Source: Bacilli bacterium (GTDB taxonomy: Bacteria > Bacillota_I > Bacilli_A > RF39 > UBA660). From it: DNA of 62,144 bases. This document shows positions 27,034-50,581 of this stretch, piece by piece; the first letter of the stretch is position 1, and each line of letters starts with the position of its first letter. The DNA is taken from positions 1 to 62,144 of the forward strand of contig JAFWNS010000043.1 in NCBI GenBank assembly GCA_017510225.1. The letters run 5' to 3'. The position numbers were made by a program, and so were the translations under genes. The notes under the pieces are model-generated. The model was not told the origin of the DNA. It made no database searches and saw only the letters and a program-made list of their open reading frames with translations.

Positions 27034-27047
27034 AATAATACCTCCTA

Positions 27048-29225: not shown

Positions 29226-29277
29226 ATCTCTACTCCCTTTCTTAAATTATTTTATCACGATTTGAAGTTGGTATCAA

Positions 29278-29802
29278 CTATTCACTAACACCATCTTTAG
29301 GATCCATAGTAGCTTGATCATTATCATCAGGTTTAGCCTTCTCCATCTCATCTAGCTCTTTTTCCTTTTTATATTTTTTAGGATTCATAATTTCTAAATA
29401 AGTTTTTTTAGTATAATGAGTAGTTTGACTAGTATCTAGTGTATCACCACTCCAATAAAACTTATTATTACTTGGATCATATTTACATTCAATTAATGTT
29501 TCAAACTCATTATTTAATGAGAAATATATATATTTATTATCATCTTCAATAACTTTTTTAAATGTTATTACTTTATAATAATTATATTTTTCTTTATTAA
29601 GATAATTAATTATATCTTCATAAAAGGCAGATAATTCATTTTTATTAAGATCTAAAATTTTAGTATTTCTGAAATCTACATCACTAACTCTAACTTCTGT
29701 AAAATAAGGATCTTCATCTTTATTAATAAGATAAATAGTCGCTATAATAGCACCTAAAATAACTAATAATAGTAATACAACTTTTACATTTTTCTTTTTC
29801 AT
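29278..29802 (-). CDS. Bitopic membrane protein; candidate VirB8/TcpC-like channel component
   Basis: N-terminal TM anchor plus a roughly 100-aa ectodomain. It sits between the coupling protein and the hydrolase. The assignment rests on position and topology only. Confidence 0.25.
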   Translation of the reverse strand: MKKKNVKVVLLLLVILGAIIATIYLINKDEDPYFTEVRVSDVDFRNTKILDLNKNELSAFYEDIINYLNKEKYNYYKVITFKKVIEDDNKYIYFSLNNEFETLIECKYDPSNNKFYWSGDTLDTSQTTHYTKKTYLEIMNPKKYKKEKELDEMEKAKPDDNDQATMDPKDGVSE

Positions 29803-29813
29803 ATTATTCCTCC

Positions 29814-31952: not shown

Positions 31953-31976
31953 TATATCACCTACTTCTTGCTAAAA

Positions 31977-33764: not shown

Positions 33765-34333
33765 GAAGGCATCACCGTCCTAAACTCTGATCTAGTTCCT
33801 CCATTTAAGAAATTATCCAAAATTATTCTTAAGTCATCATTACTAGTTTGACTAGCATTAAGTCCACAACTTGCTAATCCATTAATAAGCATTCTAACTT
33901 TCTTTTGAACTACATCTGGATCTTTTTCTTTAAATAAGAAATAATACTCAGTATCAACAATATTGTTATTTATGAAATCATTTCCTTTATTTATATCTTG
34001 CATAATTAGTTTTCTAATCGCTGGAGATTGAGTTTCATTAAATAATAATTGAAGTTGTGACATATAAACTGATATATCAACCGGTCTATCCGCAACTACT
34101 AACCAGAATTCAAAATCAATCATATTATAAAAGTTCTTTAAACTAATTAATACATTATCTTGAGACTGAGGATCTAATATAAATATGTTTTTAGGAGATA
34201 TTTTTACTCCACTAACTTTATTATTACCATAAGTAATAATCATACCATTTTGGATTGACTTAACAGGAATCCAAGCCTCAGTACTATTTCCTTCTCTTCT
34301 TGCCATCTTTATAACACCAACCTTTCCATTCAT
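33761..34333 (-). CDS. VirB4-like ATPase, detached N-terminal domain
   Basis: The sequence W.PVKSI.NGMI.......V.GVKI.P.NIF.L...QD.V...L.NF looks like the N-terminus of Gram-positive VirB4 proteins. The start could be 34333 or the ATG at 34306. Confidence 0.6.
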   Translation of the reverse strand: MNGKVGVIKMARREGNSTEAWIPVKSIQNGMIITYGNNKVSGVKISPKNIFILDPQSQDNVLISLKNFYNMIDFEFWLVVADRPVDISVYMSQLQLLFNETQSPAIRKLIMQDINKGNDFINNNIVDTEYYFLFKEKDPDVVQKKVRMLINGLASCGLNASQTSNDDLRIILDNFLNGGTRSEFRTVMPS

Positions 34334-34601
34334 ACTTTTGATTTGTAGTCAGAAAATCATATAATTCCATCAAAACTACTAAAATATTATGATAATAAGG
34401 GACTGGTACAACTAGAAAACCGCATATACCAGCAGGTAACATTACCAATACTGTTGTCCACGTAGAAGTGAACGGCATAGCTGCCAACAGTACAATAGTA
34501 ATAAAAACCCCTGTACCAAATAATATTAAGTCAAATTTTCTAAATAAACCTAATATTAATTGCCCTTTCTTTGTATTAGCGGGTATTAAATAATTATTCA
34601 C
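34284..34601 (-). CDS. PrgI/TcpE-like (VirB3-like) small membrane protein
   Basis: GTG start after AGGGAGTG. The N-terminus IPANTKKGQLILGL....DL and two TM helices directly upstream of VirB4 match the usual VirB3 position. Confidence 0.6.
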   Translation of the reverse strand: MNNYLIPANTKKGQLILGLFRKFDLILFGTGVFITIVLLAAMPFTSTWTTVLVMLPAGICGFLVVPVPYYHNILVVLMELYDFLTTNQKYEWKGWCYKDGKKRRK

Positions 34602-34615
34602 TTATATCACACTCC

Positions 34616-36751: not shown

Positions 36752-36768
36752 AACTAATCACCCCTTTC

Positions 36769-37182
36769 CTATTCGATTCCACATGTAGGATCATCAGGAT
36801 TACCTACAATATCAAATATCTGTAAAATAACAAATACAAAATCAGGCACAAAGAATAAAGCCAATACAAGTACTACTCTAATTAATAATTTCTTTTGAGC
36901 TTTATTCATGTTTTCTTGATCACTCTGTATTATTGCTTTCATGAAATCAATACTACTTAGAATAAGTAACAAAAATGGCCCTGCGTATTTAACTATTGAA
37001 AATATCTCTTTTAATAACCAAGCTGTACTCTTTGAATCATTAGGATTACCAAAGGCACCACAATCGGCAATAAGAGAAAAATTCCCTGTATTTAAAGCAT
37101 GTATATTCAATGGTATTAATAATAAAACTATAAATACCAAACTAAATAAAACTAATCTTTTTTTATTGTTCATATGATCCAC
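36769..37182 (-). CDS. VirB2/TrbC-like small hairpin membrane protein (paralogue 2, with signal peptide)
   Basis: Signal peptide (..LNIHA|LNTG) and two TM helices. It shares the loop motif SSIDFMKAIIQSDQENMNKAQKKLLIR with the neighbouring 116-aa protein. Single Cys residues lie before TM1 and at the C-terminus. Confidence 0.5.
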   Translation of the reverse strand: MDHMNNKKRLVLFSLVFIVLLLIPLNIHALNTGNFSLIADCGAFGNPNDSKSTAWLLKEIFSIVKYAGPFLLLILSSIDFMKAIIQSDQENMNKAQKKLLIRVVLVLALFFVPDFVFVILQIFDIVGNPDDPTCGIE

Positions 37183-37221
37183 TCCGGTACTATATAATTA
37201 TACATTATAAGTATACCAAAA

Positions 37222-37251
37222 CCAAAAAAAAATAGCAATAAAATTGCTATT
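37222..37251 (-). terminator. Intrinsic terminator/attenuator after the 116-aa VirB2-like gene
   Basis: Perfect 9-bp stem AATAGCAAT/ATTGCTATT with a 3-nt loop, followed by 7 or more U on the minus strand. Confidence 0.7.
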
Positions 37252-37265
37252 ATTAAATGTAAAAA

Positions 37266-37616
37266 TTATTTAATTGAATTCCAGCATTGTGCCCATCCTG
37301 AAGTATTAGTTTCAGATTTATCAGCACCAGATGCTACTATACTCATTAATAATGTAACGATTGTTGTAATAAAGAAGATAGCTACAGCGTAAATTGCACG
37401 TTTAATAAGCATGCTTTGAGCAGATTTAACTGCCTTTTCATCACTTGCTATAACTGCTTTTCCTAAATCAATAGTTCCTAAAACAATTAAGATAATTGGA
37501 ATACCAATTTGAACAATAGGTACTAAACCTTTCTTAACTAATTGAACTACTGGTTTTAAACCACCACATTTTTTATCAGCTTTTCCTACTACACCAATTT
37601 GAAATACACTTGACAT
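37266..37616 (-). CDS. VirB2/TrbC-like small hairpin membrane protein (paralogue 1; candidate major subunit)
   Basis: AAAGGAGTG SD and two TM helices flanking GTIDLGKAVIASDEKAVKSAQSMLIKR. Cys17 and Cys111 bracket the hairpin. The gene has its own promoter and terminator. Confidence 0.5.
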   Translation of the reverse strand: MSSVFQIGVVGKADKKCGGLKPVVQLVKKGLVPIVQIGIPIILIVLGTIDLGKAVIASDEKAVKSAQSMLIKRAIYAVAIFFITTIVTLLMSIVASGADKSETNTSGWAQCWNSIK

Positions 37617-37674: not shown

Positions 37675-37677
37675 TTA

Positions 37678-38670
37678 CTATCGTCTAAACAGACCAAAAA
37701 TTCTATTACTATTTACATCGTTTTTATTTTGAACTGCAATAAGTCCTAACTTAGCTAATAAGTCACTTAAAATAGGATTTTTCTTTCTCTCATCAAGTGG
37801 TGGCAAATTATAAAACATTCTCATTTTTGCTTCATATTCTAAGTCACCAACTTCTTTACCATTAAGTAAACTTTTATTTAATACTACTTTTTTATCAGCT
37901 AATTTAGAAAAAATCGCTTTATTCCTTCTAACCATTTTATTTATACCTATAATACTAGGTTCTAATAAATATATGATATCAGAACAAAAACTATCATCTT
38001 TAGTTTTATTCAAATCTACTAAAACTATACCCTCAGCAGAAGCTTCACGAACAGTATCAATTAACTCATTTTCAGAAACAGATACCATATTTTTTGCATT
38101 AAAATAAGAAAAATCATTCTTATCAACTTCTATTGCTACTACTTTATTCTTTAATTGAGCTTCCAACTCTTTTTTTAACATGTAAACTAATGTCGTAGAT
38201 CCTGCTTTATCTGTCAAATTTTTAAATCCAATAATTCTTGACATATTATTTTGTACACTATTTGACACATTTCCATTTTGATCTACTACAGTGTTTTTCT
38301 GTAAATGAGCCACATCTTTAAAAGAATTAGGCTTTTTCAAAAGATATTTTATACCATCTATATTAGTAGTAAAATTATAAATTCCATTTGACACTAAATT
38401 TGAAATAAAATTAGAAGTACATACCTCACTACCATTAGGTAAAAAGAAAATGATCTTTTCAGGATCCAATTCTTTTACTATCTTTATATAGTTTTCAATA
38501 CTATTAAAACCTCTAATTGCTGTAACATCTAGAATCATTCTGTTATAAAAAAAGTTTTTAAACATCTCAACTATTTCTAAGGCATCATATTCACCGTAAA
38601 TACTCTTAATAATATCAATATCTAAATCGGATAAAATATCTCTTTGATTATTAGCTACAATAACATTCAT
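37678..38670 (-). CDS. TadZ/CpaE-like protein (receiver-like N-domain + degenerate ParA/MinD-type P-loop)
   Basis: An N-terminal region of about 110 aa with a receiver-like alternation. The C-terminal part has IIGFKNLTDKAGSTTLVYML where the deviant Walker A (KGGxGKT) would be. The call also relies on Tad-locus context. Confidence 0.35.
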   Translation of the reverse strand: MNVIVANNQRDILSDLDIDIIKSIYGEYDALEIVEMFKNFFYNRMILDVTAIRGFNSIENYIKIVKELDPEKIIFFLPNGSEVCTSNFISNLVSNGIYNFTTNIDGIKYLLKKPNSFKDVAHLQKNTVVDQNGNVSNSVQNNMSRIIGFKNLTDKAGSTTLVYMLKKELEAQLKNKVVAIEVDKNDFSYFNAKNMVSVSENELIDTVREASAEGIVLVDLNKTKDDSFCSDIIYLLEPSIIGINKMVRRNKAIFSKLADKKVVLNKSLLNGKEVGDLEYEAKMRMFYNLPPLDERKKNPILSDLLAKLGLIAVQNKNDVNSNRIFGLFRR

Positions 38671-38700
38671 TTTATCACCCTCTTTATATTGATTCTTTTA

Positions 38701-39186
38701 CTATTTACTTCTAACTGTAATTAACTTAGTGCTTCCACCCATCCTGAAAACTTTAAGATTAGTCATAACTTTATTTATAATTGGAATATCAATTTGAATT
38801 GCTGTTTCTACTTTAAAGTAATATCTTTCATTATCATTTATATATGAGGTACTAGTTGATTCACTTCTATTACCAGAAGCTGGACATTGTTCGATAAAAT
38901 ATCCTTCTTGGTCACTAGGACTGTGGATCAGACTACAACCATCATCCACATTTGCAGTAAAATCACCAGGATGGTAACCTATTTTATCAGTGTAAGCCTT
39001 AATAACATTAGCACATGTATCTCCAGGTTTACATTTTCCCTCATATTGCTCTATTGTAGTAATAATTTTGTTTTTTACACGAAATGCCTTTGTATAACTA
39101 ACATTAAATGCTAAATAACCACTAACTATTATCAAAAATACTACAATCATAGATATATTAATAATTCCTCCAAAAGCATCACGCAT
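38701..39186 (-). CDS. Membrane-anchored protein, candidate minor pilin/TadE-like
   Basis: N-terminal hydrophobic anchor (GGIINISMIVVFLIIVSGYLAF) directly downstream of the pilin-like ORF, with 4 Cys in the ectodomain. No clear family motif. Confidence 0.3.
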   Translation of the reverse strand: MRDAFGGIINISMIVVFLIIVSGYLAFNVSYTKAFRVKNKIITTIEQYEGKCKPGDTCANVIKAYTDKIGYHPGDFTANVDDGCSLIHSPSDQEGYFIEQCPASGNRSESTSTSYINDNERYYFKVETAIQIDIPIINKVMTNLKVFRMGGSTKLITVRSK

Positions 39187-39206
39187 TTAAAACACCTCTT
39201 TTTAAT

Positions 39207-39383
39207 TTATTTAATATAATTTTGATCAACCACAATGTAGTTATAATCGCTACTAACATTATCCCATTGTTTATTAATTGCATTTTGAATATTTGGCCAC
39301 ATAATCCAGAAGAATCCAATAATAGCTGCAATTGCTATTAATGTAATAACTGTTAGATTTAATTCACCTGTAGCTGCTTTCAT
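39207..39383 (-). CDS. Unannotated 58-aa pilin-like protein (candidate Flp/Tad-type or novel subunit)
   Basis: My own translation gives MKAATGELNLTVITLIAIAAIIGFFWIMWPNIQNAINKQWDNVSSDYNYIVVDQNYIK. There is a short polar leader ending in Gly, then a hydrophobic helix. An AAAGGA SD and a near-consensus promoter lie upstream. The ORF is below the size cutoff of the ORF track. Confidence 0.5.
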   Translation of the reverse strand: MKAATGELNLTVITLIAIAAIIGFFWIMWPNIQNAINKQWDNVSSDYNYIVVDQNYIK

Positions 39384-39439
39384 TTATATAACACATCCTT
39401 TCAAAACTAAATGACATAGCTTATTTTATTCTCATTATT

Positions 39440-39468
39440 ATTATACCAATAATTTATTTTTTTAACAA
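39440..39468 (-). promoter_or_regulatory. Near-consensus sigma-A promoter upstream of the pilin-like ORF
   Basis: The minus strand reads TTGTTA, a 17 nt spacer, then TGgTATAAT (extended -10). It sits in the 91-nt gap after the TadC-like gene. Confidence 0.55.
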
Positions 39469-39474
39469 CTATTT

Positions 39475-40257
39475 TTAAACACTAAACATCATCATCATAG
39501 ATATTAGTATTATTAACATAACTCCAACACCTGTAACAACAAGCATTATCATAGTTTGACCTTCCATATGGTTAAGTCTTTCTTTATATTTAGTCTCTCT
39601 AGCTTTATTCTGTAAATTTGACACTGTCCTAGAGAACATCATTAATCTTTCATGTTTCTTTTCTTGAGATCCTAATCCTAAACGATATAAAAGTCTCATC
39701 ATTCGCATAGAATCTCTAACAGGATAAGTATTTGCAAATTCCATATATGGATCAACACTAGAATCACCAGCATTAATTTGCTCTACTAATTTTCTAAGTC
39801 CTGGTCTAAATATCTCAGGAGCATCATTAATAGATTTTCCTAAAGCAACCGGAACTGTATAATGTTGAATTAAAACTTCTAAACTTTTCAAGTAATAAGG
39901 AAGCATAACATCAATATCATGTAAATGAGCTTTATATGCTCTTTGTAATTGCTTATATGGCATTTTATAAACTAATACAGCAATAACTACAGTTAAAACT
40001 ATATTAAGAGCTGATAGTTGAGATAAGAACACAAATAAGAATGCAACACCTGTAACAAAGGCATACAACACTCTACTTCTAAACAACTTATCTGGATCTA
40101 CATCTTCACCATATTTAGCATAAACTAAAAATGTATAATCATCTTCTCTTATAAGCTCAAAATATTTTTCATTATCTGCAATAAACTTTTCTTTATCAAT
40201 TGTATTATTATATACTAACACAAAGATAATAATTGCACTTGCTACAAATACCGCCAT
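39475..40257 (-). CDS. TadC-like platform protein (T2SS-F domain)
   Basis: TM helices flank a helical cytoplasmic domain (LPYYLKSLEVLIQ...GLRKLVEQINAGDS...EFANTYPVRD...RLLYR). The gene follows a second such protein and the CpaF ATPase. Confidence 0.55.
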   Translation of the reverse strand: MAVFVASAIIIFVLVYNNTIDKEKFIADNEKYFELIREDDYTFLVYAKYGEDVDPDKLFRSRVLYAFVTGVAFLFVFLSQLSALNIVLTVVIAVLVYKMPYKQLQRAYKAHLHDIDVMLPYYLKSLEVLIQHYTVPVALGKSINDAPEIFRPGLRKLVEQINAGDSSVDPYMEFANTYPVRDSMRMMRLLYRLGLGSQEKKHERLMMFSRTVSNLQNKARETKYKERLNHMEGQTMIMLVVTGVGVMLIILISMMMMFSV

Positions 40258-41153
40258 TATTCAGCACCTACATTCTCATTATAATATTTTTCTCCCTTAA
40301 GCAAGAAATATGAATTTACAATTAAAACTCCATGAAGTAATCCTTTTATATACCACCTATTTAAAAGTATCAAATAGGTCTCTCTTCCTAATAAATATTG
40401 AACTAACATAACCATCAGATACAGCATAATACCAAATTGTAGAAACTGCTTATGGAAAGTAGCTCTTTCAATTCTATCTCTATAAACACTTTCTACAAGC
40501 ATATCTATATCAAGTTGCATGTTTTCTAAAGATTCAGCAGAATCCTTAGCACCTTCTTTAGTAATTTGTAAGAATAATTGATGCATATTCTTAACTATAT
40601 AATATGGATATATTTCACTCATATATGCAAGTGATTCATCAATACTACCATTTTTATATGCTAAATCTATCATGTGTTCAACATCTTTTTTTACAGGATC
40701 TTCTAATATCCCAGAATTCTTAACACCCTCTAATGATTTAACAAATGATTGAGTAGTTGCAAATTCCATAATTGTATTAGATGTATATACCTGAATTTGT
40801 TCAAATAAGAATTCACTATATACTCTTTTACATCTTAAGTATGATAAATATGGAATAAATGATATAACTATAAGCATATATACTATACAAATTATTAAAT
40901 TATAAAAATATAAATAAGTAACAACACCTGTAAAACCAGCCATAACAATAACTTGAATTAAATACTGTCTAGGTGTATATTCCTGTCCTAATTGCTTAGT
41001 TTTTTCTCTTACCAATTTAAAAGAATAAGGCGCAAATTTATTATATACTCCTTGAACTTGACCAGTAATAAATTTACCTACATTTTCACCTTGATAGTTT
41101 CTATATACCATCAAGAAAGAAAATAAAACTATTAAGAATAAAAGTTCAAACAT
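40257..41153 (-). CDS. TadB-like platform protein (T2SS-F domain)
   Basis: Same topology as TadC-like. Its stop and the next gene's start share a 1-nt overlap. It lies immediately downstream of the CpaF-like ATPase. Confidence 0.5.
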   Translation of the reverse strand: MFELLFLIVLFSFLMVYRNYQGENVGKFITGQVQGVYNKFAPYSFKLVREKTKQLGQEYTPRQYLIQVIVMAGFTGVVTYLYFYNLIICIVYMLIVISFIPYLSYLRCKRVYSEFLFEQIQVYTSNTIMEFATTQSFVKSLEGVKNSGILEDPVKKDVEHMIDLAYKNGSIDESLAYMSEIYPYYIVKNMHQLFLQITKEGAKDSAESLENMQLDIDMLVESVYRDRIERATFHKQFLQFGIMLYLMVMLVQYLLGRETYLILLNRWYIKGLLHGVLIVNSYFLLKGEKYYNENVGAE

Positions 41154-41167
41154 ATAAATTCTCCTTT

Positions 41168-42469
41168 CTAAGCAGGTTGTGTAGTATTTACAGGCTGTTT
41201 AACAGCAGGTTGTACTTGTTTTGGTGGTGTTGTAGTTGTAGTACTAGCTTTAGCAACTGGTTGCGCCGCAGGTTTTGGCTTAACAGGTTGTGCAACAGTT
41301 GGCTTAGCACTAGCAGTAGTCGCAGGTTTAACAACAGGTGCAGGTTGTACTACTGGCTTTTCTGTAACTACCTTAGGAGCCACCTCTCCTACTTCATCTT
41401 GAAATGGTTTATCATTAATGTGAGAAGTTATCTCACTAATATTAATATTCTGATTTTCTAAATACTCAATTAAATGAGGACTAGGTTTATTTAATACTGG
41501 TTCCCCATCAAATTGTTTTTGATAAATAGTATGACTTTGTGGTTTATTTTCCTCATCAACATAAAATTCAACCACTTCATCTACTTCACGATGGAAACAA
41601 CCCTTTTCTTTACTATAATAAGCTTTTATATGCACACCTAATTGAATATATCTATATATAGTTGTTAAGAATTGATTAACATCTAAATCAGTTTCCATCA
41701 AACTATAAAGACGATACGGTATAGCAGAAGCTTTATCAGCATGGATTGTAGACAAAATGTTATGTCCAGATGATATAGAGTTACGAACAGCAGAAACAGC
41801 TTCTGCACTACGAACCTCTGAAAGTAAAATCCATTTTGGATTCTGTCTCATGCAGGTAACCAACACATCTGTATAACTAGCAACATTATTTGTCTTCATC
41901 GCTACAATATCTCTTTGTGGAAAGATTCTATCTAAGTGTAACTCCAGAGTATCCTCAATAGTAATTACTTTTTCAGTCGTTTTAGTATGACTTGCTAAGT
42001 ATTTAACAAACTCTGTTTTACCAGAACCAGTTTCTCCACAAACCATTATATTACAATGACCTTCAACACATTTTATTAAAATATCATGAATATCTTGTGT
42101 AAAATAATCATCTTTAATTAATTTTTCTTTTTCTAATCTTATTTTTGCTGGTGTCTTACGTATAACCATAGCAATTCCATTAGTAGCAATAGATTGATGC
42201 ACAAAGTTAAGACGTAATTCACTTGATTCAGCATCTAAAAAGGGTTTAGCATTATTAAAAGTTGTTCCCATTACATTTGAACATTGAAAAGCCAACTTTT
42301 CAATAAATTCGGGAGTAACTCCTGCAATCTCAACCCTTAAAGACCCTTGAGTTAGAGAACGTACCCAAATTTGTCCACCATTATCAAATGAGATATCAGT
42401 GATATCATCATTATCAAGTAGTGCTCTTAAGGGTCCAAAATCTAACTTGTCAAATATATTTTCGTTCAT
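41168..42469 (-). CDS. CpaF/TadA-type secretion ATPase (VirB11/T2SS-E superfamily) with Pro-rich C-terminal tail
   Basis: Walker A CGETGSGKTE, Asp box ITIEDTLEL, Walker B ILLSEVR and His box LSTIHA. A C-terminal P/V/A/K/Q/T low-complexity tail of about 80 aa follows. Confidence 0.85.
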   Translation of the reverse strand: MNENIFDKLDFGPLRALLDNDDITDISFDNGGQIWVRSLTQGSLRVEIAGVTPEFIEKLAFQCSNVMGTTFNNAKPFLDAESSELRLNFVHQSIATNGIAMVIRKTPAKIRLEKEKLIKDDYFTQDIHDILIKCVEGHCNIMVCGETGSGKTEFVKYLASHTKTTEKVITIEDTLELHLDRIFPQRDIVAMKTNNVASYTDVLVTCMRQNPKWILLSEVRSAEAVSAVRNSISSGHNILSTIHADKASAIPYRLYSLMETDLDVNQFLTTIYRYIQLGVHIKAYYSKEKGCFHREVDEVVEFYVDEENKPQSHTIYQKQFDGEPVLNKPSPHLIEYLENQNINISEITSHINDKPFQDEVGEVAPKVVTEKPVVQPAPVVKPATTASAKPTVAQPVKPKPAAQPVAKASTTTTTPPKQVQPAVKQPVNTTQPA

Positions 42470-42511
42470 CTAACCCAACTCCTTCTTATTCTTTAATCCC
42501 CCTATATATTT

Positions 42512-43327
42512 CTATTCACCAGTCCATACTGTCCATTCATTAATCTTATCTTTTAATTCATCACTTGCTACTTCTACATCTCCAGGTTCATCTTTAAGAC
42601 TTTCATTAGTTGGAACCGGTATAAGTGTAGAATCATAAGTTCTTAAATAACTAGCTTTCTTAAGTAAGATATAATCATCCTCAGGTAAAGCAAATACTAT
42701 CATAGCTGGTGTCTTAGAATCATCTAAATTAGAAAATACTGGTTGTCCATTACTATCTTTAACAGCTAAAACTTTAACATTTTTAAGGAACTTACCATAC
42801 ATGATTTTATCAGCATCTTTATTACCTTTTGCTATTTCAGTATCTGATATTTTATTAACAGCTTTTAAATAAATATCAATATAATTTCCTGGATAAATAG
42901 AGTTACCATATGTACTCTCAGTATCAACAGGCATATTATATAAAACATGACCTTTTGGATAATCTAAAATGATATTAGCTGGTAATTGTTCTTTTTCTAC
43001 TACATTTCGTTTATAGAATAAACTACCTTCAGGAATAACAGTATCAGCATTTGAATACTTATCAATAACATCTCCCTGACTTCTAACAATATCAACTTTA
43101 TTAACCATATCTTGAGGTACATCCATAGTACCTACCATATTTTCAGTTATTTGTGTTCCAGGAGCTATAGTTTGTTTAGCATAAGGTACACTAACAGGAC
43201 TAATTGCTGTTTTAACACGGTGATTATATGAAATATATAATACTGCAACAGCAAGAACAACACCTAAAACAGTAACTGTGTTTTTATTTGATAAAAACTT
43301 CTTAATACCAGAATTCATGTTTCCCAT
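42512..43327 (-). CDS. CpaB/RcpC-like pilus assembly protein (SAF domain)
   Basis: N-terminal TM anchor and a SAF-like segment VPYAKQTIAPGTQITENMV. It sits directly upstream of the CpaF-like ATPase, as in Tad loci. Confidence 0.55.
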   Translation of the reverse strand: MGNMNSGIKKFLSNKNTVTVLGVVLAVAVLYISYNHRVKTAISPVSVPYAKQTIAPGTQITENMVGTMDVPQDMVNKVDIVRSQGDVIDKYSNADTVIPEGSLFYKRNVVEKEQLPANIILDYPKGHVLYNMPVDTESTYGNSIYPGNYIDIYLKAVNKISDTEIAKGNKDADKIMYGKFLKNVKVLAVKDSNGQPVFSNLDDSKTPAMIVFALPEDDYILLKKASYLRTYDSTLIPVPTNESLKDEPGDVEVASDELKDKINEWTVWTGE

Positions 43328-43345
43328 TTTATTCCTCCTCTACTA

Positions 43346-43789
43346 TTATTTTTTAAACTCTTCTTTAATCTTGTTTTCACAATATTGATCGTAATGATAA
43401 TTCTCTTCTAATATAGCATCTACAGTAGTAGTAATTGCTTGTCCTTCACCTTTTACTCTTAATACTGTTTGAGAATCAATCTTTACACTTGCTTTTGGTG
43501 GTACTTCACTTATATCATAAAAAGCTACCACATATTCACGAGTATTATCTACAGTATCAGCAAATCTACAAAGAAAACTTTCAATAAACTTTTCTCTATC
43601 AATTCTAAGCATACATGTTTTTCTATAAAATGAAGTATCTACAGCATCATTCATTGATGATTCTGCAGTTTCCTTCAACAGGTAGTAATCTAATTCACTA
43701 CCTGTTGAGTAGTTAGAAACAATATTTATCATCAATAAAGCTATAGCACTTAATATAATAATACCCACTGTTAACATCGCTTTATTCAT
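43346..43789 (-). CDS. Membrane-anchored hypothetical protein (possible pseudopilin-like)
   Basis: N-terminal hydrophobic anchor (MLTVGIIILSAIALLMINIV) plus a roughly 115-aa domain. The assignment is positional only. Confidence 0.3.
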   Translation of the reverse strand: MNKAMLTVGIIILSAIALLMINIVSNYSTGSELDYYLLKETAESSMNDAVDTSFYRKTCMLRIDREKFIESFLCRFADTVDNTREYVVAFYDISEVPPKASVKIDSQTVLRVKGEGQAITTTVDAILEENYHYDQYCENKIKEEFKK

Positions 43790-43807
43790 ACTTTATAACC
43801 TCCCATT

Positions 43808-46345
43808 TTACTTTACATAACGATTTATATCTGCAGAACGATTTAATGTTTTTGTTTTACCATATGACATATCAAAATATGTACTATAATGTGTAATCAA
43901 TGGTGAAGAATATCTGTAAATATGTTGATAGATACCTGTATCACCAACTGGTTGTTGTGCAAAGTTTCCTTTGTAATTAGTATAATTACGGTCTTTTGTA
44001 TTTTTAGTATAATCTCTTATCTTAGCTAATTTTTCTTTAGTTAGTTTAACTCTGAAATCTAATTTAGCATCAGTATAAACTTCTTTTCCTTGAATTGCAC
44101 TTATCATAGCTTCTATATCAAGATTTTTGAAACTAGAAGCAGCAGTCCAGTTAAATCCAACATCATTTTCTTTTCTATCTCCAAACATCTTATTTGTATC
44201 AACAATTCTGAATTCTGAATTAGTTATTGGATTAGTCTCTTGTCCACATGGTTTATTACAACATTCTCCTGTACATGATTTTGGACAATCAGTTCCACAA
44301 CAATCCTTTGTACATTTTGAATCATTTGGTGGTGCTGTTTCTGTATTCTTAATAGCATAGAAACAATTCATTATAATTTCCCAAGCATAATGTCCAAAGT
44401 TTTTAGTAACACCTTTAATATTTTCCTTATCTTCTATTCTACCATTGAAATCTCCATTACTATCTCCGAAATATGAATTACCAACTTGATCCCACATCCA
44501 CCATTGGATATTAGTTGATTTAGCATTTAATGGTAAACAGAATTTATTTTCAAATGGTTTCCAATAAGCTCCGTTTTGTTTAGAATAAGAAATTTCTCCA
44601 TTCTTATTATTCATCCAAGTACCAGGGAATGTCCATTCACCTTGATACCAAGTAAATTTAGCATCTTTTGTATAACAAGAATTAGTATCTTCTGTCACAT
44701 GATTATACTTTGGTGAAATTATAGTTGTATTCTTTTTATCATTAGTATTATAAGTACCATCAGGTGAACTTAACTTATCATAATCTGAATCATTAGGGAA
44801 ATGTATTGTAGTTGCAGTTGATTGATCTGCTGCTTGATATTTAACATCGATAGTATAAGTAGATGTCTTAGTTGTACAACCCTTAGCAGCTTTACATTCT
44901 TTTAATTTTTTCTCATAATCTTCTGCATGTTTATCAGCATCTGCTTGTGCTTGTTTAGGATTTAGATAATCATCTTTGCTACAAGAATCTGTATCCCATG
45001 CGCAAGTTTCATTACAGTTAGTAGCCTTCCAAATACCATTAACTGGCACATATGTACACTTTTTACAGTAATGTTGATGCGGATCATAATTTCCATACCA
45101 ACGTCCTATTTTACTACTCTTAGAACGCCAATTTATACTATTACCACTCCAATAATAACATCCATCTTTATCAGGACAATTATATCCATATTTTTTAGAT
45201 GCTACTTGAGTTGCACCTATAGAAGTTGTAACATCATTCATAGCAGTGTTAGTTGTTTTTTCTGATTCTCCATAAACCTTCTTATAACATTTATCACTAC
45301 ATTTTCTGCTGTATTTTCCTCCATCACAGTCTTTAATACAACTTTCATATTTATCATTTGGTCCACCTTGTCTAATTGTACCTAAACTACTATTGAAACA
45401 TTCAGGTGGTGGTGTACAAGTTTTATAATCACTTTCTTTAGGATAATTATCAGTAACTTCTGCTTCACATTTTACATAACTAGTAACTTTAAATTTATAT
45501 TCAAAACATTGTCCAGCTTTTGAAGCAACAGGAGGTCCATATTCTGCTTTAAGAACTTCTGTACATTTTTTCTTACAAACAGTAACAGTTTTATCTTTTC
45601 TACCATTACTATATTTATATGTATAAGTTACTTTACCAGCATCTCCTTTAGTATAAAAATAATTTACATTAGAATAATAATTTTTCTTTTTATTATCTTC
45701 TGTATACTTCTCAGATTGTTTTATACCATTCTTATAATAATACTTACTAGAATTAGGATTACAATATAATTTTTTAGTTAAATCATCTTTTTTAACATAA
45801 TGACCTTGAGCTTCTTTTAAAGCCTTATCAAAATCAGGATGAGCTGGTGATTCAGATGCTTCCTTAATTAATTTTAATAATGTTGCTTTATTAATAATAG
45901 AAGCATTCATTTCACGTTTTGTACCATATGTAGTATATCCAACTGTTCCTTTTGTATTTTTCTTTTTATATTTAGCTCCTTTTGTATCAGCAGAACCAAC
46001 TTTGTTAACACCAAAATCTATAACTACTTGACTGTTATCAGGTGTAATAGTAAGTTCTTTACTTTCAGATCTAAATTTTGTACCTACATAGTTAGTAGTT
46101 GAATGACCCTTTACCTTCTCAATAATAAATTGAGTTCTCTGTTCAGTAGTCTTTTGTTGTTTATTCCAATCACACACTATTTTATAGACGTTCTTTCTAA
46201 CTCTTTTTAAATGAACTCCATAATAATCTGATAAATCTACTTTTTTACTCTTTGCATACGTATCTGGAGTATATGCAAAAATACAAAGTATTAACGAAAT
46301 AACAACCCCAATCTTTACTAATTTAAACTTCTTCATTTTCTTCAC
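43808..46345 (-). CDS. Large secreted cysteine-rich protein (candidate adhesin/tip or matrix component)
   Basis: Sec signal peptide (..FAYTPDTYA|KSKK). There are about 32 Cys in the mature part by hand count, many as CxxC, CxxxC or CC pairs (CKKKC, CIKDC, CSDKC, CKKC, CTKDCCGTDCPKSCTGECCNKPC). No sorting signal found. Confidence 0.6.
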   Translation of the reverse strand: MKKMKKFKLVKIGVVISLILCIFAYTPDTYAKSKKVDLSDYYGVHLKRVRKNVYKIVCDWNKQQKTTEQRTQFIIEKVKGHSTTNYVGTKFRSESKELTITPDNSQVVIDFGVNKVGSADTKGAKYKKKNTKGTVGYTTYGTKREMNASIINKATLLKLIKEASESPAHPDFDKALKEAQGHYVKKDDLTKKLYCNPNSSKYYYKNGIKQSEKYTEDNKKKNYYSNVNYFYTKGDAGKVTYTYKYSNGRKDKTVTVCKKKCTEVLKAEYGPPVASKAGQCFEYKFKVTSYVKCEAEVTDNYPKESDYKTCTPPPECFNSSLGTIRQGGPNDKYESCIKDCDGGKYSRKCSDKCYKKVYGESEKTTNTAMNDVTTSIGATQVASKKYGYNCPDKDGCYYWSGNSINWRSKSSKIGRWYGNYDPHQHYCKKCTYVPVNGIWKATNCNETCAWDTDSCSKDDYLNPKQAQADADKHAEDYEKKLKECKAAKGCTTKTSTYTIDVKYQAADQSTATTIHFPNDSDYDKLSSPDGTYNTNDKKNTTIISPKYNHVTEDTNSCYTKDAKFTWYQGEWTFPGTWMNNKNGEISYSKQNGAYWKPFENKFCLPLNAKSTNIQWWMWDQVGNSYFGDSNGDFNGRIEDKENIKGVTKNFGHYAWEIIMNCFYAIKNTETAPPNDSKCTKDCCGTDCPKSCTGECCNKPCGQETNPITNSEFRIVDTNKMFGDRKENDVGFNWTAASSFKNLDIEAMISAIQGKEVYTDAKLDFRVKLTKEKLAKIRDYTKNTKDRNYTNYKGNFAQQPVGDTGIYQHIYRYSSPLITHYSTYFDMSYGKTKTLNRSADINRYVK

Positions 46346-47171
46346 CTTCCAATATCTTTTTCACTTTTGAATATTTTTTATTAACTTTGACTCCATAATT
46401 TTTAAGTTTCTCACCTTTTCTAACTAATCTAGCATTTACTCTAAAATTAATTTTGTCATTATCTCCAAAAAATCTTGTACAAGTAATAAGTGAAATAAAC
46501 TTGTCTTTATTATTAACCGATACATCAAAATCATATATACTATTCTTTTTAGTATCGTTAATAAACTTATCTTTTTCTTTCTTTGTATAATTACTATCAG
46601 AATATAAATCTAACTTATAATAATTAACAAATTCAACAGAATATATTTTATAAATATAATTCTTACCATCAATGGTATATTGTATATATTTATTATCTTT
46701 AATATGATCATAATATACAAATGCCATCAAATCATCAAACCTTGAGAAATGTTTCAATGAAACATCCGGATGTGTAGATAAATTCAAAAGGTTATGTCCC
46801 ATTATGCTCACTTTATTAAATAGTTTTTCTTTACTATTCATATTCCAAACATAATTTTCTTTCTTTATATAATGATCTGCATCAGCATTCTCATCAGTTT
46901 TACTACCTTCATCATCACCATAATAATAAATTATTGGTGTATCTATCTTGGTTCCTTGAACTTTAACCCATCCTATAGTTTTTACATAAAGAGAATTATC
47001 TTTTTTTTGTTCTTCTTTTATGTTTTTAATTCTAGAATCAACTTTATATATATCTGGTTTAAAACTATCTATTAAGAATTTGATGCCTAAAACAGAAAGA
47101 ATTAAAAGCAAAACAATTAAAACTATAACTATTGCTTTTAATTTAGTTGTATGTTTATTTTTTACGAGCAT
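46323..47171 (-). CDS. Class B-like sortase
   Basis: N-terminal TM anchor and TIGWVKVQGTKIDTPIIY. Catalytic His (SIMGHNLL), Cys (SLITCTRF) and Arg (RVNARLV) appear in the canonical order. Confidence 0.75.
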   Translation of the reverse strand: MLVKNKHTTKLKAIVIVLIVLLLILSVLGIKFLIDSFKPDIYKVDSRIKNIKEEQKKDNSLYVKTIGWVKVQGTKIDTPIIYYYGDDEGSKTDENADADHYIKKENYVWNMNSKEKLFNKVSIMGHNLLNLSTHPDVSLKHFSRFDDLMAFVYYDHIKDNKYIQYTIDGKNYIYKIYSVEFVNYYKLDLYSDSNYTKKEKDKFINDTKKNSIYDFDVSVNNKDKFISLITCTRFFGDNDKINFRVNARLVRKGEKLKNYGVKVNKKYSKVKKILEGEENEEV

Positions 47172-47203: not shown

Positions 47204-49018
47204 TTATTTAGTTATTTTATATGGATTATTCTTAGTTCCTTCTCCACTAACTACTTTAATATCAGAATTCATATAACCGCATAATCTAATACCAAATTCA
47301 TGGAAATCATACATATCTTCATTAGTAATATAACCAATATCTGTAATTAAAGCTTTCTTATATTGCTTCTTAGAAGAATTTATCAACCAATATGATCCCA
47401 TTGTAGCACCATCACGTTGATTATATACGAATGCACTAAACATATCATACATATTAGGAGCAAAAAGTTTTACCTTATACTTTTTAGTTTCCATCTCCTT
47501 TTTGTATTTAATACTATTTTTATAAATAGGAACCTCTATATCTTTCTTAACAAAATAATCAGTTTTTAAATACCTACTCATTTTGTTTTTAATAAAATAT
47601 CCTACATTTCCTCTTTGATTTGGATTGTATATTTTAGCCTTATCTTTTGTCTTATAGAATGTTAGAACATTTAGCTCATCACCTTTAACAGTGTTATCCA
47701 TTATAACTTTTGTTGTTCCATCATTATCTGTTTCTATAATCCTCCATAAATAATTAGCATATTCAAAATACTCACCAGTTTTTCTTTTATTTAGTTTTGT
47801 ATTAGTTTTAGCTTTCTTAACATCACCTAAGTAATATGGACTCTCATATGTACCTAAACCTTTCTTAACTAAAGAAGATCCTTTAATAGTTATAACTGGT
47901 CTAACACCATAATTATAATTCTTATCAAAAGCTAACATATCTTTACCATAATCTTCTTCATAAAAAGCATTTCTAGTAGCATATGATTCTTTATCATCTT
48001 TCTTATTAGCTAACCATGATATAGTAACTGGTTTTAAGAAACTATTTCCATCAACTAAACTTTTATTAAGTTCATTAGCCGATAAAATATATACTTTCTT
48101 TTTCTCAGTAGTAGAACTACATCTTGTTGTATCTGTATTAGTATCAGAAAGTTTCATATTACAATAATTATCTTCTACTATATATTTTTTAGATTTATTA
48201 TCTAGATGATCATAATAGTACTCTAACCATTTATCAATACTATCATAATTAACATTACTAACATCTTGATCTGCTATTATCTTTACATTAGTACCATCAG
48301 TACCAATAATTCTAAATAACATACCAGAAAAATAAATGTAATTATTTGGATTATCACCTTTATAATAACCTAACTTATCTGTATTCTTCTTAACAACATT
48401 TTTAATTCTTGAAACTACTTTTACTTTTCTAACTTTAACAGTCTTATTATTTAAACTATCATAAGCAGTATAAGTAACTTCATAAGTTCCAACTTTCTTA
48501 GTATTAACAGTTTTAGAATTAATAACAACTTCATTAGGACTAATTCTACCATCACTATTATCACTAACACTCTTAACACCTAATTCATTATACTTAGAAC
48601 CTTTATTAACAGTAACTACATCATTACCAAACAATGTTATCTCTGGACCTTTATGATCTACCATAGATCTCATAAAACCACATTCTAAGTATATATAATA
48701 TTTATATCTACCATCTACTCTTTTAACCTTTGCCCAACTATTAGTAACAGAACAAGATTTATTAGTTAAAGGAACATTCATATCTTCCTTTAAAAAAGCT
48801 TTACTATATAGATGTTTTAAAGAAATAGTTTTAACTCTACGTCCAGTAGGAAGTTCATTACTATTTACTTCAAAATATCTTTTAGAAGCTTTCATCATTT
48901 TATCTTCATTACTTTTAAATGTAATTATTGGGCTTAATATTAAAAACCAAACTAGAAATAATACTACAAATACAATACTGATCACACTAACTTTTCTTAC
49001 AATTTTCTCCGCATCCAT
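47204..49018 (-). CDS. Membrane-anchored surface protein with Ig-like (DUF5011-type) domain; paralogue of the 25756-27033 product
   Basis: TM anchor and the shared module SCSVTNSWAKVKRVDGRYKYYIYLECG. An Ig-like segment follows (GPEITLFGNDVVTVNKGSKYNELG...GTYEVTYTAYD). Two copies of the domain end in G.GT...PY.. Confidence 0.6.
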   Translation of the reverse strand: MDAEKIVRKVSVISIVFVVLFLVWFLILSPIITFKSNEDKMMKASKRYFEVNSNELPTGRRVKTISLKHLYSKAFLKEDMNVPLTNKSCSVTNSWAKVKRVDGRYKYYIYLECGFMRSMVDHKGPEITLFGNDVVTVNKGSKYNELGVKSVSDNSDGRISPNEVVINSKTVNTKKVGTYEVTYTAYDSLNNKTVKVRKVKVVSRIKNVVKKNTDKLGYYKGDNPNNYIYFSGMLFRIIGTDGTNVKIIADQDVSNVNYDSIDKWLEYYYDHLDNKSKKYIVEDNYCNMKLSDTNTDTTRCSSTTEKKKVYILSANELNKSLVDGNSFLKPVTISWLANKKDDKESYATRNAFYEEDYGKDMLAFDKNYNYGVRPVITIKGSSLVKKGLGTYESPYYLGDVKKAKTNTKLNKRKTGEYFEYANYLWRIIETDNDGTTKVIMDNTVKGDELNVLTFYKTKDKAKIYNPNQRGNVGYFIKNKMSRYLKTDYFVKKDIEVPIYKNSIKYKKEMETKKYKVKLFAPNMYDMFSAFVYNQRDGATMGSYWLINSSKKQYKKALITDIGYITNEDMYDFHEFGIRLCGYMNSDIKVVSGEGTKNNPYKITK

Positions 49019-49027
49019 ATTATTCTC

Positions 49028-50581
49028 CTATTTTAATTCAAAAGTATATTTCTTATTTCTAACCGTATAAACCATCTTCATATTTTTAGATTCAGATAAT
49101 TCCTTAGGAACTCTAATATACATATACTGACCCATATACTTTCTACCGATAGCATCTTTGATCTTTATACTCCTATCTTTATCTTTACTATCTATATAAT
49201 TAATTTTACCATATTTAGCCGAAAAGTCAATTAATTCTTTACCTTCAAAGGCGTCTGAAACGAAATCAATTTTTAATATTTTTGAATCATTATTACTACT
49301 TACAAAATCAGTCGCTGAAGCGCATAATTCTTCGTCATCACATTCTTCATAATTATATTCAGCTTTATCAACAAATTTAGCTGATTCTATAGTAAGATCT
49401 TTCTTATTAGGACCTACATCTATAACTGCTTTATGCCCTTTCTTAGTAGGTTTCATATCGACAATTTTTGACACATCTTCCATATTAAGTTTTATCTTTC
49501 TTAAAAACGGTTTATTATTTATATAATCTTGATAATAAAGAACAAACTTATCTTTAGGTAATTTTTTATCCACTTTAAAAACCATTATTAAATTAATATT
49601 CTCTCCTGATTTAAATTCTTTCTCAGAATAAGTAACTCCTAAATCAGAAAAATCACTTTCATAAGTTCTATAAGTATCCGTATAATCATTTACACCATTC
49701 ATAACATGAAATCTCTTAAAATTAATATCTCTACGATAAACATTATTTTTAATATTCATACTAACTATTACAAAATTACTAGTCTTAGAAATAACTTTTC
49801 CATTATAATTTTTATCTGTATAATAACTATTTTTAATATTTAAAGTATATCCATTTAATTCAAATACATCTCCTTGTTTATAAGATCTACGTAATATAAA
49901 TATGTTATAAAAAGATGTTACTAAAAATATCCCAATAACTAGAGTAATTAAAACATTAGATAAAAACTTATGTTCTTGATATACATAACCAACATTTCTA
50001 AGGAATCTCTTATAACCCCTAATAAAAGTATGTTTATCAATATCAATATTTACTTCAAATTCTTCTCTATCTCCACTATCTAGTTCTAGGTATTCCTGAT
50101 CTATTTTAAAATTAAAATTGTTAATATCAATACCAAATATTCTAATTAATAATATTATAAACACAGGATATTGTCCTAAAGAAACTATTAATAATAAATC
50201 CCTAATAGCTCTAACACCAGTAGTACCTTCTCCCCTATAATTAGAAAAGAAATTAGATGTTATTATAAGCATTAAAAACATTGCACTATATACAATAATA
50301 GGCACTAAATATAATTTCCATGGTTTATTTTTACGTTTTAATAAAACCAATAGTGCAACAGATAATCCAATAACAATCAATAACCCTAAAATAAGAATAA
50401 GATTGATGTGTCTAGATATAGGTTCAGAGTTAATATCATATGATCCTAAAGTTACAAACTCAGATACAAAAGATCTTGTCTGAATACATTTATAAAATAT
50501 ATAAGCACATAAAAACAACATAAAAATATGTATCTTTTTAAAGTTCTTAACTAAAAACGCATATGGCTTTCTGAATATCAT
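49028..50581 (-). CDS. Polytopic membrane protein with large extracytoplasmic C-terminal domain (unknown function), first gene of the cluster
   Basis: About five hydrophobic segments in the first 230 aa or so, then a hydrophilic domain of about 290 aa. The SD is GGTAGGAGGGTG. A TATAAT hexamer at 50608-50613 (minus strand) is a possible -10. Confidence 0.55.
   Translation of the reverse strand: MIFRKPYAFLVKNFKKIHIFMLFLCAYIFYKCIQTRSFVSEFVTLGSYDINSEPISRHINLILILGLLIVIGLSVALLVLLKRKNKPWKLYLVPIIVYSAMFLMLIITSNFFSNYRGEGTTGVRAIRDLLLIVSLGQYPVFIILLIRIFGIDINNFNFKIDQEYLELDSGDREEFEVNIDIDKHTFIRGYKRFLRNVGYVYQEHKFLSNVLITLVIGIFLVTSFYNIFILRRSYKQGDVFELNGYTLNIKNSYYTDKNYNGKVISKTSNFVIVSMNIKNNVYRRDINFKRFHVMNGVNDYTDTYRTYESDFSDLGVTYSEKEFKSGENINLIMVFKVDKKLPKDKFVLYYQDYINNKPFLRKIKLNMEDVSKIVDMKPTKKGHKAVIDVGPNKKDLTIESAKFVDKAEYNYEECDDEELCASATDFVSSNNDSKILKIDFVSDAFEGKELIDFSAKYGKINYIDSKDKDRSIKIKDAIGRKYMGQYMYIRVPKELSESKNMKMVYTVRNKKYTFELK

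Follow-up and report, generated by a model that had tools for sequence, protein, structure and literature searches.

The locus studied here raises the question of what a large, cysteine-rich and probably exported protein does between a sortase-like gene and the genes of a Tad-type pilus. The protein is encoded on contig JAFWNS010000043.1 (assembly GCA_017510225.1) of a Bacilli bacterium from the GTDB order RF39, and the whole 62,144-nucleotide (nt) stretch analysed is called the window hereafter. A first, sequence-only reading had proposed it as a tip adhesin, secreted substrate or structural component of a Tad machine. We suggest, with middling confidence, that the Cys-rich protein is a disulfide-braced, surface-exposed and strain-variable adhesin or specificity subunit of a machine in which a Tad pilus is joined by a type IV secretion system (T4SS). 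A fixed place in the operon, predicted export, covalent bracing, a conserved core accompanied by hypervariable parts, and allele-like diversity together fit such an exposed subunit best.

The open reading frame (ORF) was confirmed at 43808..46345 on the minus strand, a strand left unstated in the sequence-only reading, and a GTG start at 46345 yields the 845 amino acids (aa) that were originally reported. The ATG at 46336, which gives 842 aa, is most likely the true start, because the GTG falls within the Shine-Dalgarno sequence GGAAGGTG directly ahead of the ATG, because reading from the GTG in the close relative L005 meets an immediate TAG while the ATG is kept, and because the family database representative P0001 is also 842 aa long. 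Residue numbers below follow the 845-aa count unless marked as 842-aa numbering. The N-terminus reads as a type I signal peptide, with a charged n-region (MKKFKLVK), a hydrophobic h-region (IGVVISLILCIFA) and a c-region (YTPDTYA, followed by KS) in which T-Y-A precedes K and places small residues at -3/-1; this boundary is heuristic and comes from reading the sequence. The homologues have the same n-h-c layout and VxA-type cleavage sites, and the protein is predicted to be Sec-exported, as had been proposed. The junctions are as tight as described, with a 14-nt overlap with the sortase-like gene and an 18-nt gap to the DUF5411 gene.

The mature chain holds exactly 32 cysteines, in agreement with the earlier hand count of about 32, and C21 in the h-region of the signal peptide brings the total to 33. 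Cysteine makes up 3.9% of the protein as compared with 1.0% in the window's minus-strand ORFs of at least 150 aa (binomial P ~1e-10). Every Cys motif quoted from the translation could be located, namely CKKKC at 257-261, CIKDC at 336-340, CSDKC at 349-353, CKKC at 427-430, CNETC at 444-448 followed by C455, and a dense C-terminal knot, CTKDCCGTDCPKSCTGECCNKPC, at 678-700. Conservation of the cysteines, a point on which the proposal could have failed, proved extensive: 19 of them (195, 257, 261, 280, 293, 310, 316, 336, 340, 349, 353, 444, 448, 455, 484, 490, 557, 603 and 661) are invariant or near-invariant in alignments of 55, 118 and 230 homologues. Besides Cys, E263 and D341 are invariant among the 230 members. 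The knot is present in the window protein, but conservation does not extend beyond its first Cys (82-90% of homologues); the predicted local distance difference test (pLDDT) score of the knot is <50, and the linker around it varies in length, is rich in Cys, Pro, Asp, Gly and Thr, and is different in each lineage. Short-spaced Cys pairs number 15, as against 6.7 +/- 2.1 in shuffles; with the knot removed there are 8 against 4.7, a marginal excess that 6% of shuffles reach, and the excess of short-range clustering comes mostly from the knot.

The N-terminal domain has a median identity to homologues of 15%, as opposed to 47% for the core (Table 1). The AlphaFold2 (AF2) model has a mean pLDDT of 74.7 and a predicted TM-score (pTM) of 0.59, and is confident over residues ~40-670. 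From N- to C-terminus it places a beta-rich N-domain, 18-residue beta strands carrying C257, C261, C280 and C293, the twin CX3C hairpin, a 20-residue helix, a well-predicted beta domain with conserved FPGTW, WW and CFYAL motifs, a disordered linker and a low-confidence C-terminal domain of ~140 aa. The hairpin is predicted as helix-loop-helix, with helices at 328-338 and 344-355 (842-aa numbering). When the model was compared with PDB and BFVD by Foldseek, a check suggested at the outset, nothing was found at E <= 1e-3, the top matches being FN3/Ig-like noise (E 0.05-0.08, probability <=0.1), and no known fold or family was recovered; the predicted fold is unmatched in these two collections. 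Searches of Pfam (down to E <= 10), NCBIfam and PHROGs found no family for the protein, and a sequence-profile search of PDB found nothing at E <= 1, in line with the initial statement that it belongs to no recognised family.

Its relatives are nevertheless numerous. A word-indexed search returned 199 of them, all unnamed or "hypothetical", and an exhaustive profile search covering 1.84 billion representatives yielded 700 clusters (50% identity, E <= 1e-3), 485 of these at E <= 1e-30, with the best 150 matches all being full-length members. A pattern scan with one genome per GTDB species located the family in at least 190 stretches. The carriers are metagenome-assembled genomes (MAGs) of uncultured bacteria (Tenericutes, Mollicutes or Bacilli) recovered from the guts of humans, rodents, rabbits, chickens and ruminants, and include "Mycoplasma sp. 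CAG:877" and Candidatus Faecimonas, the latter corresponding to GTDB genus CAG-877 of order RF39, with ~28% GC and a 1.4-Mb genome (PMC8035907). As far as these matches indicate, this is a large unannotated family of RF39-type gut and rumen Bacilli, with at least 485 clusters and at least 190 species.

The way in which cysteines come and go in the family points to pairing. C390 and C396 co-occur (phi 0.98), the homologue columns 670/679, 836/845 and 625/678 co-vary with phi 0.98, 0.95 and 0.74, respectively, and the co-varying pairs overall span phi 0.74-1.0. C427/C430 is an additional pair of the same sort that is specific to the window protein, and C310 and C455 are lost jointly in about six members, with parity kept. 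Past the N-terminal hydrophobic segment, members have 21-39 cysteines, and the count is odd in 212 of the 229 full-length members, although relatedness makes these counts phylogenetically non-independent, so that the binomial P of 5e-44 is nominal and should not be read as a real probability. A count that shifts over an 18-Cys range almost wholly by twos would be difficult to account for if the cysteines were not paired. The members with the fewest cysteines, P0002 and P0003, contain 21, made up of the 19-Cys core and the 390/396 pair. As the core set is odd, one invariant Cys would be without an intramolecular partner, and we propose a conserved unpaired Cys in the core; this odd set was not foreseen in the sequence-only reading. 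Natural Cys losses are few and confounded by alignment, and the only pairs to emerge from them are C310-C455 and perhaps C257-C484. No neighbour in the locus offers a conserved lone Cys as an intermolecular partner, DUF5411 having 0 or 2 and the other neighbours even conserved sets. A locus-encoded partner was thus rejected, the only lone Cys being the single catalytic-type one of the sortase-like protein.

The genomic position of the gene is as constant as its core. The order on the minus strand is greA, p517, p604, the sortase-like gene, the Cys-rich gene, DUF5411, CpaB/RcpC, a TadA/CpaF-type ATPase and the platform genes onward. The Cys-rich gene lies between the sortase-like gene and the Tad genes, where it was first noticed, in ~80 of 82 related loci, and across the 82 loci these neighbours were found wherever the contig extends. 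The same order is found beside greA and U32 peptidase genes in distant relatives whose Cys-rich protein is only ~32% identical. A fixed order at the same greA/U32 site in distant RF39-type genomes suggests that the locus is vertically inherited rather than a recent mobile element or integrative and conjugative element (ICE). Neither a relaxase nor an integrase was found in the window, and tblastn searches of plasmid and phage collections gave no match to the family, after which a reading as a mobile-element or phage receptor-binding protein was dropped. Tad-like genes do adjoin the gene, as had been described, but the machine is not Tad alone, since a T4SS block follows. The whole looks like a chromosomal, vertically inherited Tad-like locus fused with a relaxase-less T4SS block.

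Within this stable setting, the Cys-rich gene is extraordinarily variable. Median identities to the window proteins are 85% for GreA, 84% for TadA (73 loci), 79% for the 298-aa platform protein, 76% for the pilin-like protein, 66% for CpaB and 60% for DUF5411, and they fall in the cassette to 49% for p604, 45% for p517, 41% for the sortase-like protein and 32% for the Cys-rich protein. The contrast is sharpest with contig CAZYQE010000005.1 (L005/L083), in which the U32, HD, GreA and DUF6568 proteins are 96-99% identical to those of the window and the flanking DNA is ~90-99% identical. Here identity drops to 33% in the Cys-rich protein and to 41-60% in its essentially unalignable DNA, while p517 and p604 are 61-62%, the sortase-like protein 59%, DUF5411, CpaB and TadA 81-88%, and the platform proteins 93-94% identical. 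Identity within the Cys-rich protein is 25% for the N-domain and 48% for the core; because the whole protein is divergent, the difference looks like a swap for a deeply diverged allele and not like local point mutation. Between L027 and L053, the flanks are 97-100% identical and the differences are confined to the sortase-like (57%) and Cys-rich (49%) proteins and, less markedly, p604 (87%). Furthermore, in three MAGs with two copies, contigs end inside DUF5411, directly after the cassette, which may reflect co-existing strains that share the downstream but differ in the upstream sequence. These comparisons indicate that the Cys-rich gene is the epicentre of a swappable cassette in an otherwise conserved machine, and such extreme local hypervariability is consistent with the exposed adhesin or structural component first suggested. 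Allelic behaviour of the cassette of p517, p604, sortase-like and Cys-rich genes (43808-50581) was observed at L005, L027/L053, L043/L063, L065/L076 and L075/L077.

This variability also bears on the possibility that the protein is a wall-spanning conduit or alignment part that oligomerises with CpaB above the membrane and leads the pilus or T4SS channel across the peptidoglycan, a monoderm stand-in for the RcpA secretin, which we consider unlikely. Universal presence two genes upstream of CpaB would suit such a part, a rigid stapled core with an unpaired Cys could support covalent oligomers, and in diderms the RcpC ring works with a secretin (PMC12307814). However, the Cys-rich protein is the least conserved in the locus (33% between the window and L005, against 85% for CpaB and 88% for TadA), which would be odd for a channel that has to fit conserved partners, and it bears no signature of a secretin or ring-former. 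A secretin of the RcpA/GspD type was rejected as an assignment, there being no Pfam or NCBIfam match and no structural match.

The unpaired Cys could instead be the functional heart of the protein, making it an enzyme or a reactive adhesin, whether a covalent adhesin of thioester type, a Cys hydrolase directed at mucin or at a target's envelope, or a protein that works with the sortase-like enzyme. An odd 19-Cys core that implies one conserved thiol outside intramolecular disulfides, the invariant E263 and D341, and the co-variation of the Cys-rich gene with the sortase-like gene are all in keeping with this idea, which we nonetheless think quite unlikely. The thioester motif is [YFL]C-hydrophobic-hydrophilic within a beta strand (PMC4450167), and the LCFE of the family consensus around C280 (AGLCFEY) fits this loose motif; however, the window protein has QCFE (GQCFEY) and a four-residue motif is weak and not discriminating. 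A thioester-domain (TED/TIE) adhesin was rejected, with no Pfam TED at E <= 10 and no Foldseek match in PDB at E <= 1e-3. The best-conserved Gln, Q326 (201 of 230 members), lies in a loop with pLDDT <50, and the family alignment has no invariant His, so that a Cys-His dyad is lacking.

Cysteine pairs are not confined to the Cys-rich protein. Apart from the sortase-like protein with its single Cys, every other predicted extracytoplasmic part of the locus has invariant pairs, namely p604 (C89/C113 and C286/C300), p517 (C414/C420), the 161-aa pseudopilin-like protein (C52/C58), the two small proteins with two transmembrane (TM) segments, p116 and p137 (C17/C111 and C41/C134), and TrbL (C215/C244). 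The pairs of these predicted extracytoplasmic apparatus parts (p604, p517, p161, p116, p137 and TrbL; 34616-50581) are 97-100% conserved among 21-77 orthologues, and the Cys-rich protein is apparently the extreme case of an apparatus-wide Cys-pair habit. By contrast, exported proteins of Firmicutes have been reported to exclude Cys (PMC2823432). Disulfides in such number would require an oxidase, and not for the Cys-rich protein alone, and a search for one had been recommended; no DsbA, BdbD, DsbB or VKOR gene was found in the window, and an atypical membrane-anchored thioredoxin-fold protein, DUF6568, was found instead. Its K-rich N-terminus ahead of a single TM helix predicts an N-in topology, with the ectodomain outside the membrane. 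Its AF2 model, built on an alignment of 30 homologues, has a pLDDT of 83.6 and thioredoxin topology, and Foldseek gave 128 PDB matches at E <= 1e-3 (probability 1.0, target TM-score ~0.7), all of them thioredoxins or 1zma, the pneumococcal bacteriocin transport accessory protein. A single-sequence search of PDB with DUF6568 was negative, and the thioredoxin fold emerged by structure alone. The invariant C75-x6-C82 sits at a strand end and helix start, the usual site of CXXC, and P134 is invariant at the cis-Pro position. DUF6568 is encoded in 112 or more GTDB species. Among the 80 assemblies listed, no fewer than 44 also carry the Cys-rich family, and the two genes are often on the same contig, some 35-45 kb apart. 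We regard DUF6568, on the strength of its model, as a candidate extracytoplasmic thiol-disulfide oxidoreductase for the Cys pairs of the locus; a thioredoxin fold would also give DUF6568 a structural assignment.

These observations bear on a third alternative, namely that the cysteines bind metal, as Zn(Cys)4 or Fe-S, which would suit an anaerobe without classical Dsb enzymes. The window looks anaerobe-like (rubrerythrin), DsbA, DsbB and VKOR were not found in it, and C336, C340, C349 and C353 could in principle hold Zn. Nevertheless, metal binding appears very unlikely, as the Cys units of three or four with CXXC knuckles that characterise Zn and Fe-S sites were not seen and turnover proceeds by twos, and as all other exposed parts of the machine carry simple Cys pairs and a thioredoxin-fold ectoprotein is encoded nearby. 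The original proposal had left the choice between disulfides and metal undecided; we favour putative disulfides over metal sites, because Cys residues are gained and lost in pairs, parity is odd, no His is invariant, and the conserved motifs, which lie on predicted helices and strands, have CX3C spacing and not that of CXXC knuckles. The weakest alternative, that the protein is a secreted effector or toxin, or a mere neighbour without a role in the machine, would agree with a predicted cleavable signal peptide, the lack of an anchor and a fast evolution typical of effectors, but is highly improbable given the 14-nt overlap, a place fixed in a structural operon at the same chromosomal site in ~80 of 82 loci, the absence of an immunity-like small partner gene and of plasmid or phage matches, and the fact that T4SS substrates are not usually recognised by a Sec signal.

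If the Cys-rich protein is indeed an adhesin or specificity subunit, we envisage that it would be exported by Sec and then undergo oxidative folding of its core (191-670), possibly aided by the DUF6568 protein. At least about ten intramolecular disulfides would hold the multi-domain protein rigid. The conserved core and the C-terminal domain may dock onto the machine through DUF5411, the pseudopilins or the CpaB ring, leaving the hypervariable N-domain and the Cys/Pro-rich linker to face outward and bind a target; candidates for this target are a second cell, the mucus of the host or a surface. The conserved unpaired Cys might provide an intermolecular link or a functional thiol, and alleles would be swapped in one cassette that includes the sortase-like gene.

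Several points weigh against this view of the protein. Expression, export, disulfides and surface location are all predicted, and the searches returned no adhesin that resembles the protein in fold or sequence. There is no sign of an anchor either: the protein has no C-terminal TM segment, and it is not a canonical sortase substrate, since no LPXTG- or NPQTN-type signal with a hydrophobic C-terminal segment and a positive tail was found in the family, nor a sorting-signal tail in any window ORF. Among 118 members, hydropathy over 15-aa stretches of the last 60 aa peaks at a median value of 0.26 and never exceeds 1.1, and an NPITN in the window protein is unconserved and is followed by 140 soluble residues. 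A lipoprotein was likewise rejected, as there is no lipobox ([LVI][ASTVI][GAS]C); the window protein has no Cys near the cleavage site, and 89-95% of homologues have a Cys after the signal that is not in a lipobox context. Nor is the N-terminus pilin-like; a Tad or type IV pilin or pseudopilin was rejected, given the Sec signal with a VxA-type site and no Glu at +5, and a Gly near position 10 is common in the family but not universal. As for the bracing, pairing was read from co-variation and parity, the parity counts are subject to the non-independence mentioned above, and the window protein, with its 32 cysteines, is itself among the 17 even-count exceptions. It is without the four N-domain cysteines of most homologues and has there only C58, which is unique to it. 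DUF6568 has CX6C as its putative active site and no CXXC. Finally, pressure from phages or immunity on an exposed but non-adhesive part could account just as well for the hypervariability.

The family was previously unannotated and has no known fold. Precedents are known for Tad pili with variable tips that work with another secretion apparatus and for an adhesin encoded within a Gram-positive T4SS operon. The Kil (Tad) pilus of Myxococcus xanthus has interchangeable Tip complexes of minor pilins with variable domains, and needs a needleless type III secretion system (PMC12075869). Like Kil, the present machine would be a Tad-type pilus functionally tied to a second secretion apparatus, and the variable domains at the contact end of Kil set its targets. 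However, Kil tips are diderm pseudopilins processed by prepilin peptidase, whereas the Cys-rich protein is Sec-signalled, monoderm and has a T4SS as partner, and its tip location is putative. A second parallel is p34 of pLS20, TIE(pLS20), a class II thioester-domain adhesin in a conjugation operon of Bacillus subtilis (PMC8092201). Like p34, which serves cell-cell contact, the Cys-rich protein is large, predicted to be exported, encoded among Gram-positive T4SS genes and not sortase-anchored; unlike p34, it has no TED or Cna domain that Pfam or Foldseek could detect and 19 conserved cysteines instead of one, and its locus is chromosomal, relaxase-less and lineage-wide and not plasmid-borne. 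Mating adhesins of the PrgB type offer a further comparison alongside p34.

Another comparison is offered by the DUF5411-containing CpaF/PilC operons of gut Clostridia, which include an internalin-like protein and were predicted to form a novel system for pili or secretion (PMC9523054). They share with the present locus the DUF5411 and CpaF-type core, a gut Firmicute host and a large putative adhesion protein, but the accessory protein here is Cys-rich and not internalin-like, and a T4SS block and a sortase are unreported there. In Actinobacteria, disulfide-dependent pilins and exported proteins, MdbA/Dsb-like oxidoreductases and an even-biased Cys content have been described (PMC2823432, PMC9974433). 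Surface proteins there are disulfide-stabilised and need an extracytoplasmic thioredoxin-fold oxidoreductase, as is predicted here, although the phylum differs, the putative disulfides per protein are far more numerous here, and the active site is CX6C and not CXXC. The hairpin of the core has a more local resemblance. Twin CX3C helical hairpins are known from small Tim proteins and plant alpha-hairpinins. The C-x3-C...C-x3-C arrangement of C336, C340, C349 and C353 on two antiparallel predicted helices is alike, but the likeness is one of a local 18-residue motif without homology, and the pairing is putative.

RF39 is an abundant uncultured lineage of gut and rumen with a reduced genome and many auxotrophies (PMC6784871, PMC12306168). 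We speculate, tentatively and regarding it as unlikely, that RF39 bacteria carry an undescribed lineage-defining surface organelle, a fusion of a chromosomal Tad system and a relaxase-less T4SS, whose specificity would be set by swappable cassettes of a sortase-like protein and a disulfide-armoured protein of new fold with a reactive Cys. This protein would be folded by a dedicated CX6C ectoenzyme, and the organelle would mediate obligate cell-cell contact, for DNA or nutrient uptake or for partner attachment. If true, it would explain the lifestyle of the auxotrophic, uncultured RF39, in parallel with the T4SS of Patescibacteria, a reduced-genome, uncultured and auxotrophic lineage whose chromosomal monoderm-type T4SS may serve cell-cell dependence (PMC12102498). 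Patescibacteria belong to another phylum, and the text of that study has no mention of Tad genes, a sortase or RF39. A literature search on RF39 with pili, T4SS or Tad, of incomplete coverage, found no account of the locus or the family. As the most variable piece of a lineage-conserved machine at a fixed site, the Cys-rich protein is a likely determinant of what RF39 bacteria touch. With the Cys pairs across the apparatus and a candidate unconventional oxidoreductase, it would also be a clear counter-example to the rule of "cysteine exclusion" from exported Firmicute proteins (PMC2823432). Moreover, the allelic cassettes could serve as strain markers, and the protein is tractable without culture, through heterologous expression, structure determination and disulfide mapping.

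Table 1. Coordinates of the Cys-rich protein, its parts and the surrounding features in the window.
Feature	Position	Strand	Remarks
Cys-rich exported protein (export predicted)	43808..46336	minus	842-aa coding sequence from ATG at 46336; 33 Cys
Predicted Sec-type signal peptide, MKKFKLVKIGVVISLILCIFAYTPDTYA before KS	46253..46336	minus	sequence reading; holds sole non-mature Cys
Hypervariable N-terminal beta-rich domain, ~32-190	45776..46252	minus	median identity 15%; AF2 confident
Conserved Cys-stapled core, ~191-670, 19 invariant Cys	44336..45775	minus	AF2 pLDDT mostly 85-98
Twin CX3C motif, CIKDCDGGKYSRKCSDKC	45287..45340	minus	four Cys (C336, C340, C349, C353) all invariant
"C-terminal knot", CTKDCCGTDCPKSCTGECCNKPC	44246..44314	minus	lineage-specific expansion within hypervariable linker
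C-terminal domain, ~140 aa	43811..44230	minus	moderately conserved; motifs R.VD..N.FP, GR.PGFNW
Sortase-like protein	46323..47171	minus	membrane-anchored; Pfam Sortase 2.3e-7, weak class-B match
p604 + p517	47204..50581	minus	p604: TM anchor, Ig-like domain, DUF6273-like region; p517: multi-TM
greA	50662-51153	minus	housekeeping gene at one end of locus
Tad-like core	37678..43789	minus	DUF5411 through 330-aa protein
58-aa pilin-like ORF (MKAATGELNLTVITLIAIAAIIGFFW...)	39207-39383	minus	between platform genes and pseudopilin-like gene; ~76% identity in 64 loci
Monoderm-type T4SS block	25756..37616	minus	follows Tad core directly
DUF6568 protein	5810..6328	minus	predicted N-in TM anchor and extracytoplasmic thioredoxin fold; candidate thiol-disulfide oxidoreductase

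The C-terminal domain of the Cys-rich protein contains neither a TM segment nor a sorting signal. The sortase-like protein shows conservation of His126 and of its T-C231 motif; no LPXTG-type substrate for it was found in the window or in the Cys-rich family, and it diversifies alongside the Cys-rich gene. After the ATPase, the Tad core continues with polytopic proteins of 298 and 260 aa, the 58-aa pilin-like ORF, the 161-aa pseudopilin-like protein and a 330-aa protein. The ATPase matches T2SSE at 1.4e-26 and RcpC/CpaB matches are present (Pfam, NCBIfam); the two polytopic proteins had no T2SSF match in Pfam, and no prepilin peptidase was found in the 62-kb window. The 58-aa ORF, which falls under the length limit of the default ORF list, is likely the major pilin, though it is without the usual Flp G/xxxxEY motif. 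The ATPase carries a C-terminal low-complexity tail of ~80 aa rich in Pro, Ala, Thr, Gln and Val (41168-41480, minus strand), which is not alignable even to that of L005 and is longer elsewhere, with TadA reaching 520-584 aa.

The T4SS block consists of two small VirB2-like 2-TM proteins, a TrbL/VirB6-like protein, a split VirB4 and a CHAP + lysozyme hydrolase, and ends with a CD1115-family coupling protein (303 bits against a cut-off of 250) and a DUF6273 protein, after which come a VTT-domain gene and rmuC. VirB4, of the Mbov_0397 type, was matched at 1.5e-102, under the family cut-off, and TrbL_4 was also matched. The split VirB4 (31977-34333, minus strand) is made up of a 190-aa ORF that covers model positions 100-276 and a 595-aa ORF that covers 294-891, with a 4-nt overlap. 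The 190-aa piece is a separate gene in L001 and L005 too, and the split therefore seems natural and not a frameshift error. The DUF6273 protein (25756-27033) is 22-33% identical to part of p604 (47204-49018), both on the minus strand, which suggests that related domains bracket the locus.

The window as a whole fits the RF39 lineage in its GC content of 21-35% and in carrying rubrerythrin, sporulation remnants (YunB, SpoVID-N/LysM and a sigma factor) and a sortase, and the rubrerythrin suggests an anaerobic organism; according to an earlier report, RF39 has retained peptidoglycan as well as sporulation genes and sortases (PMC10868615). Shuffled sequence gave more promoter-like sites than the real one, and a scan of 36000-51500 found no minus-strand terminators. 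Nearly all genes lie on the minus strand with a strongly negative GC skew (-0.13 to -0.48) throughout, consistent with a single replichore and co-orientation with replication.

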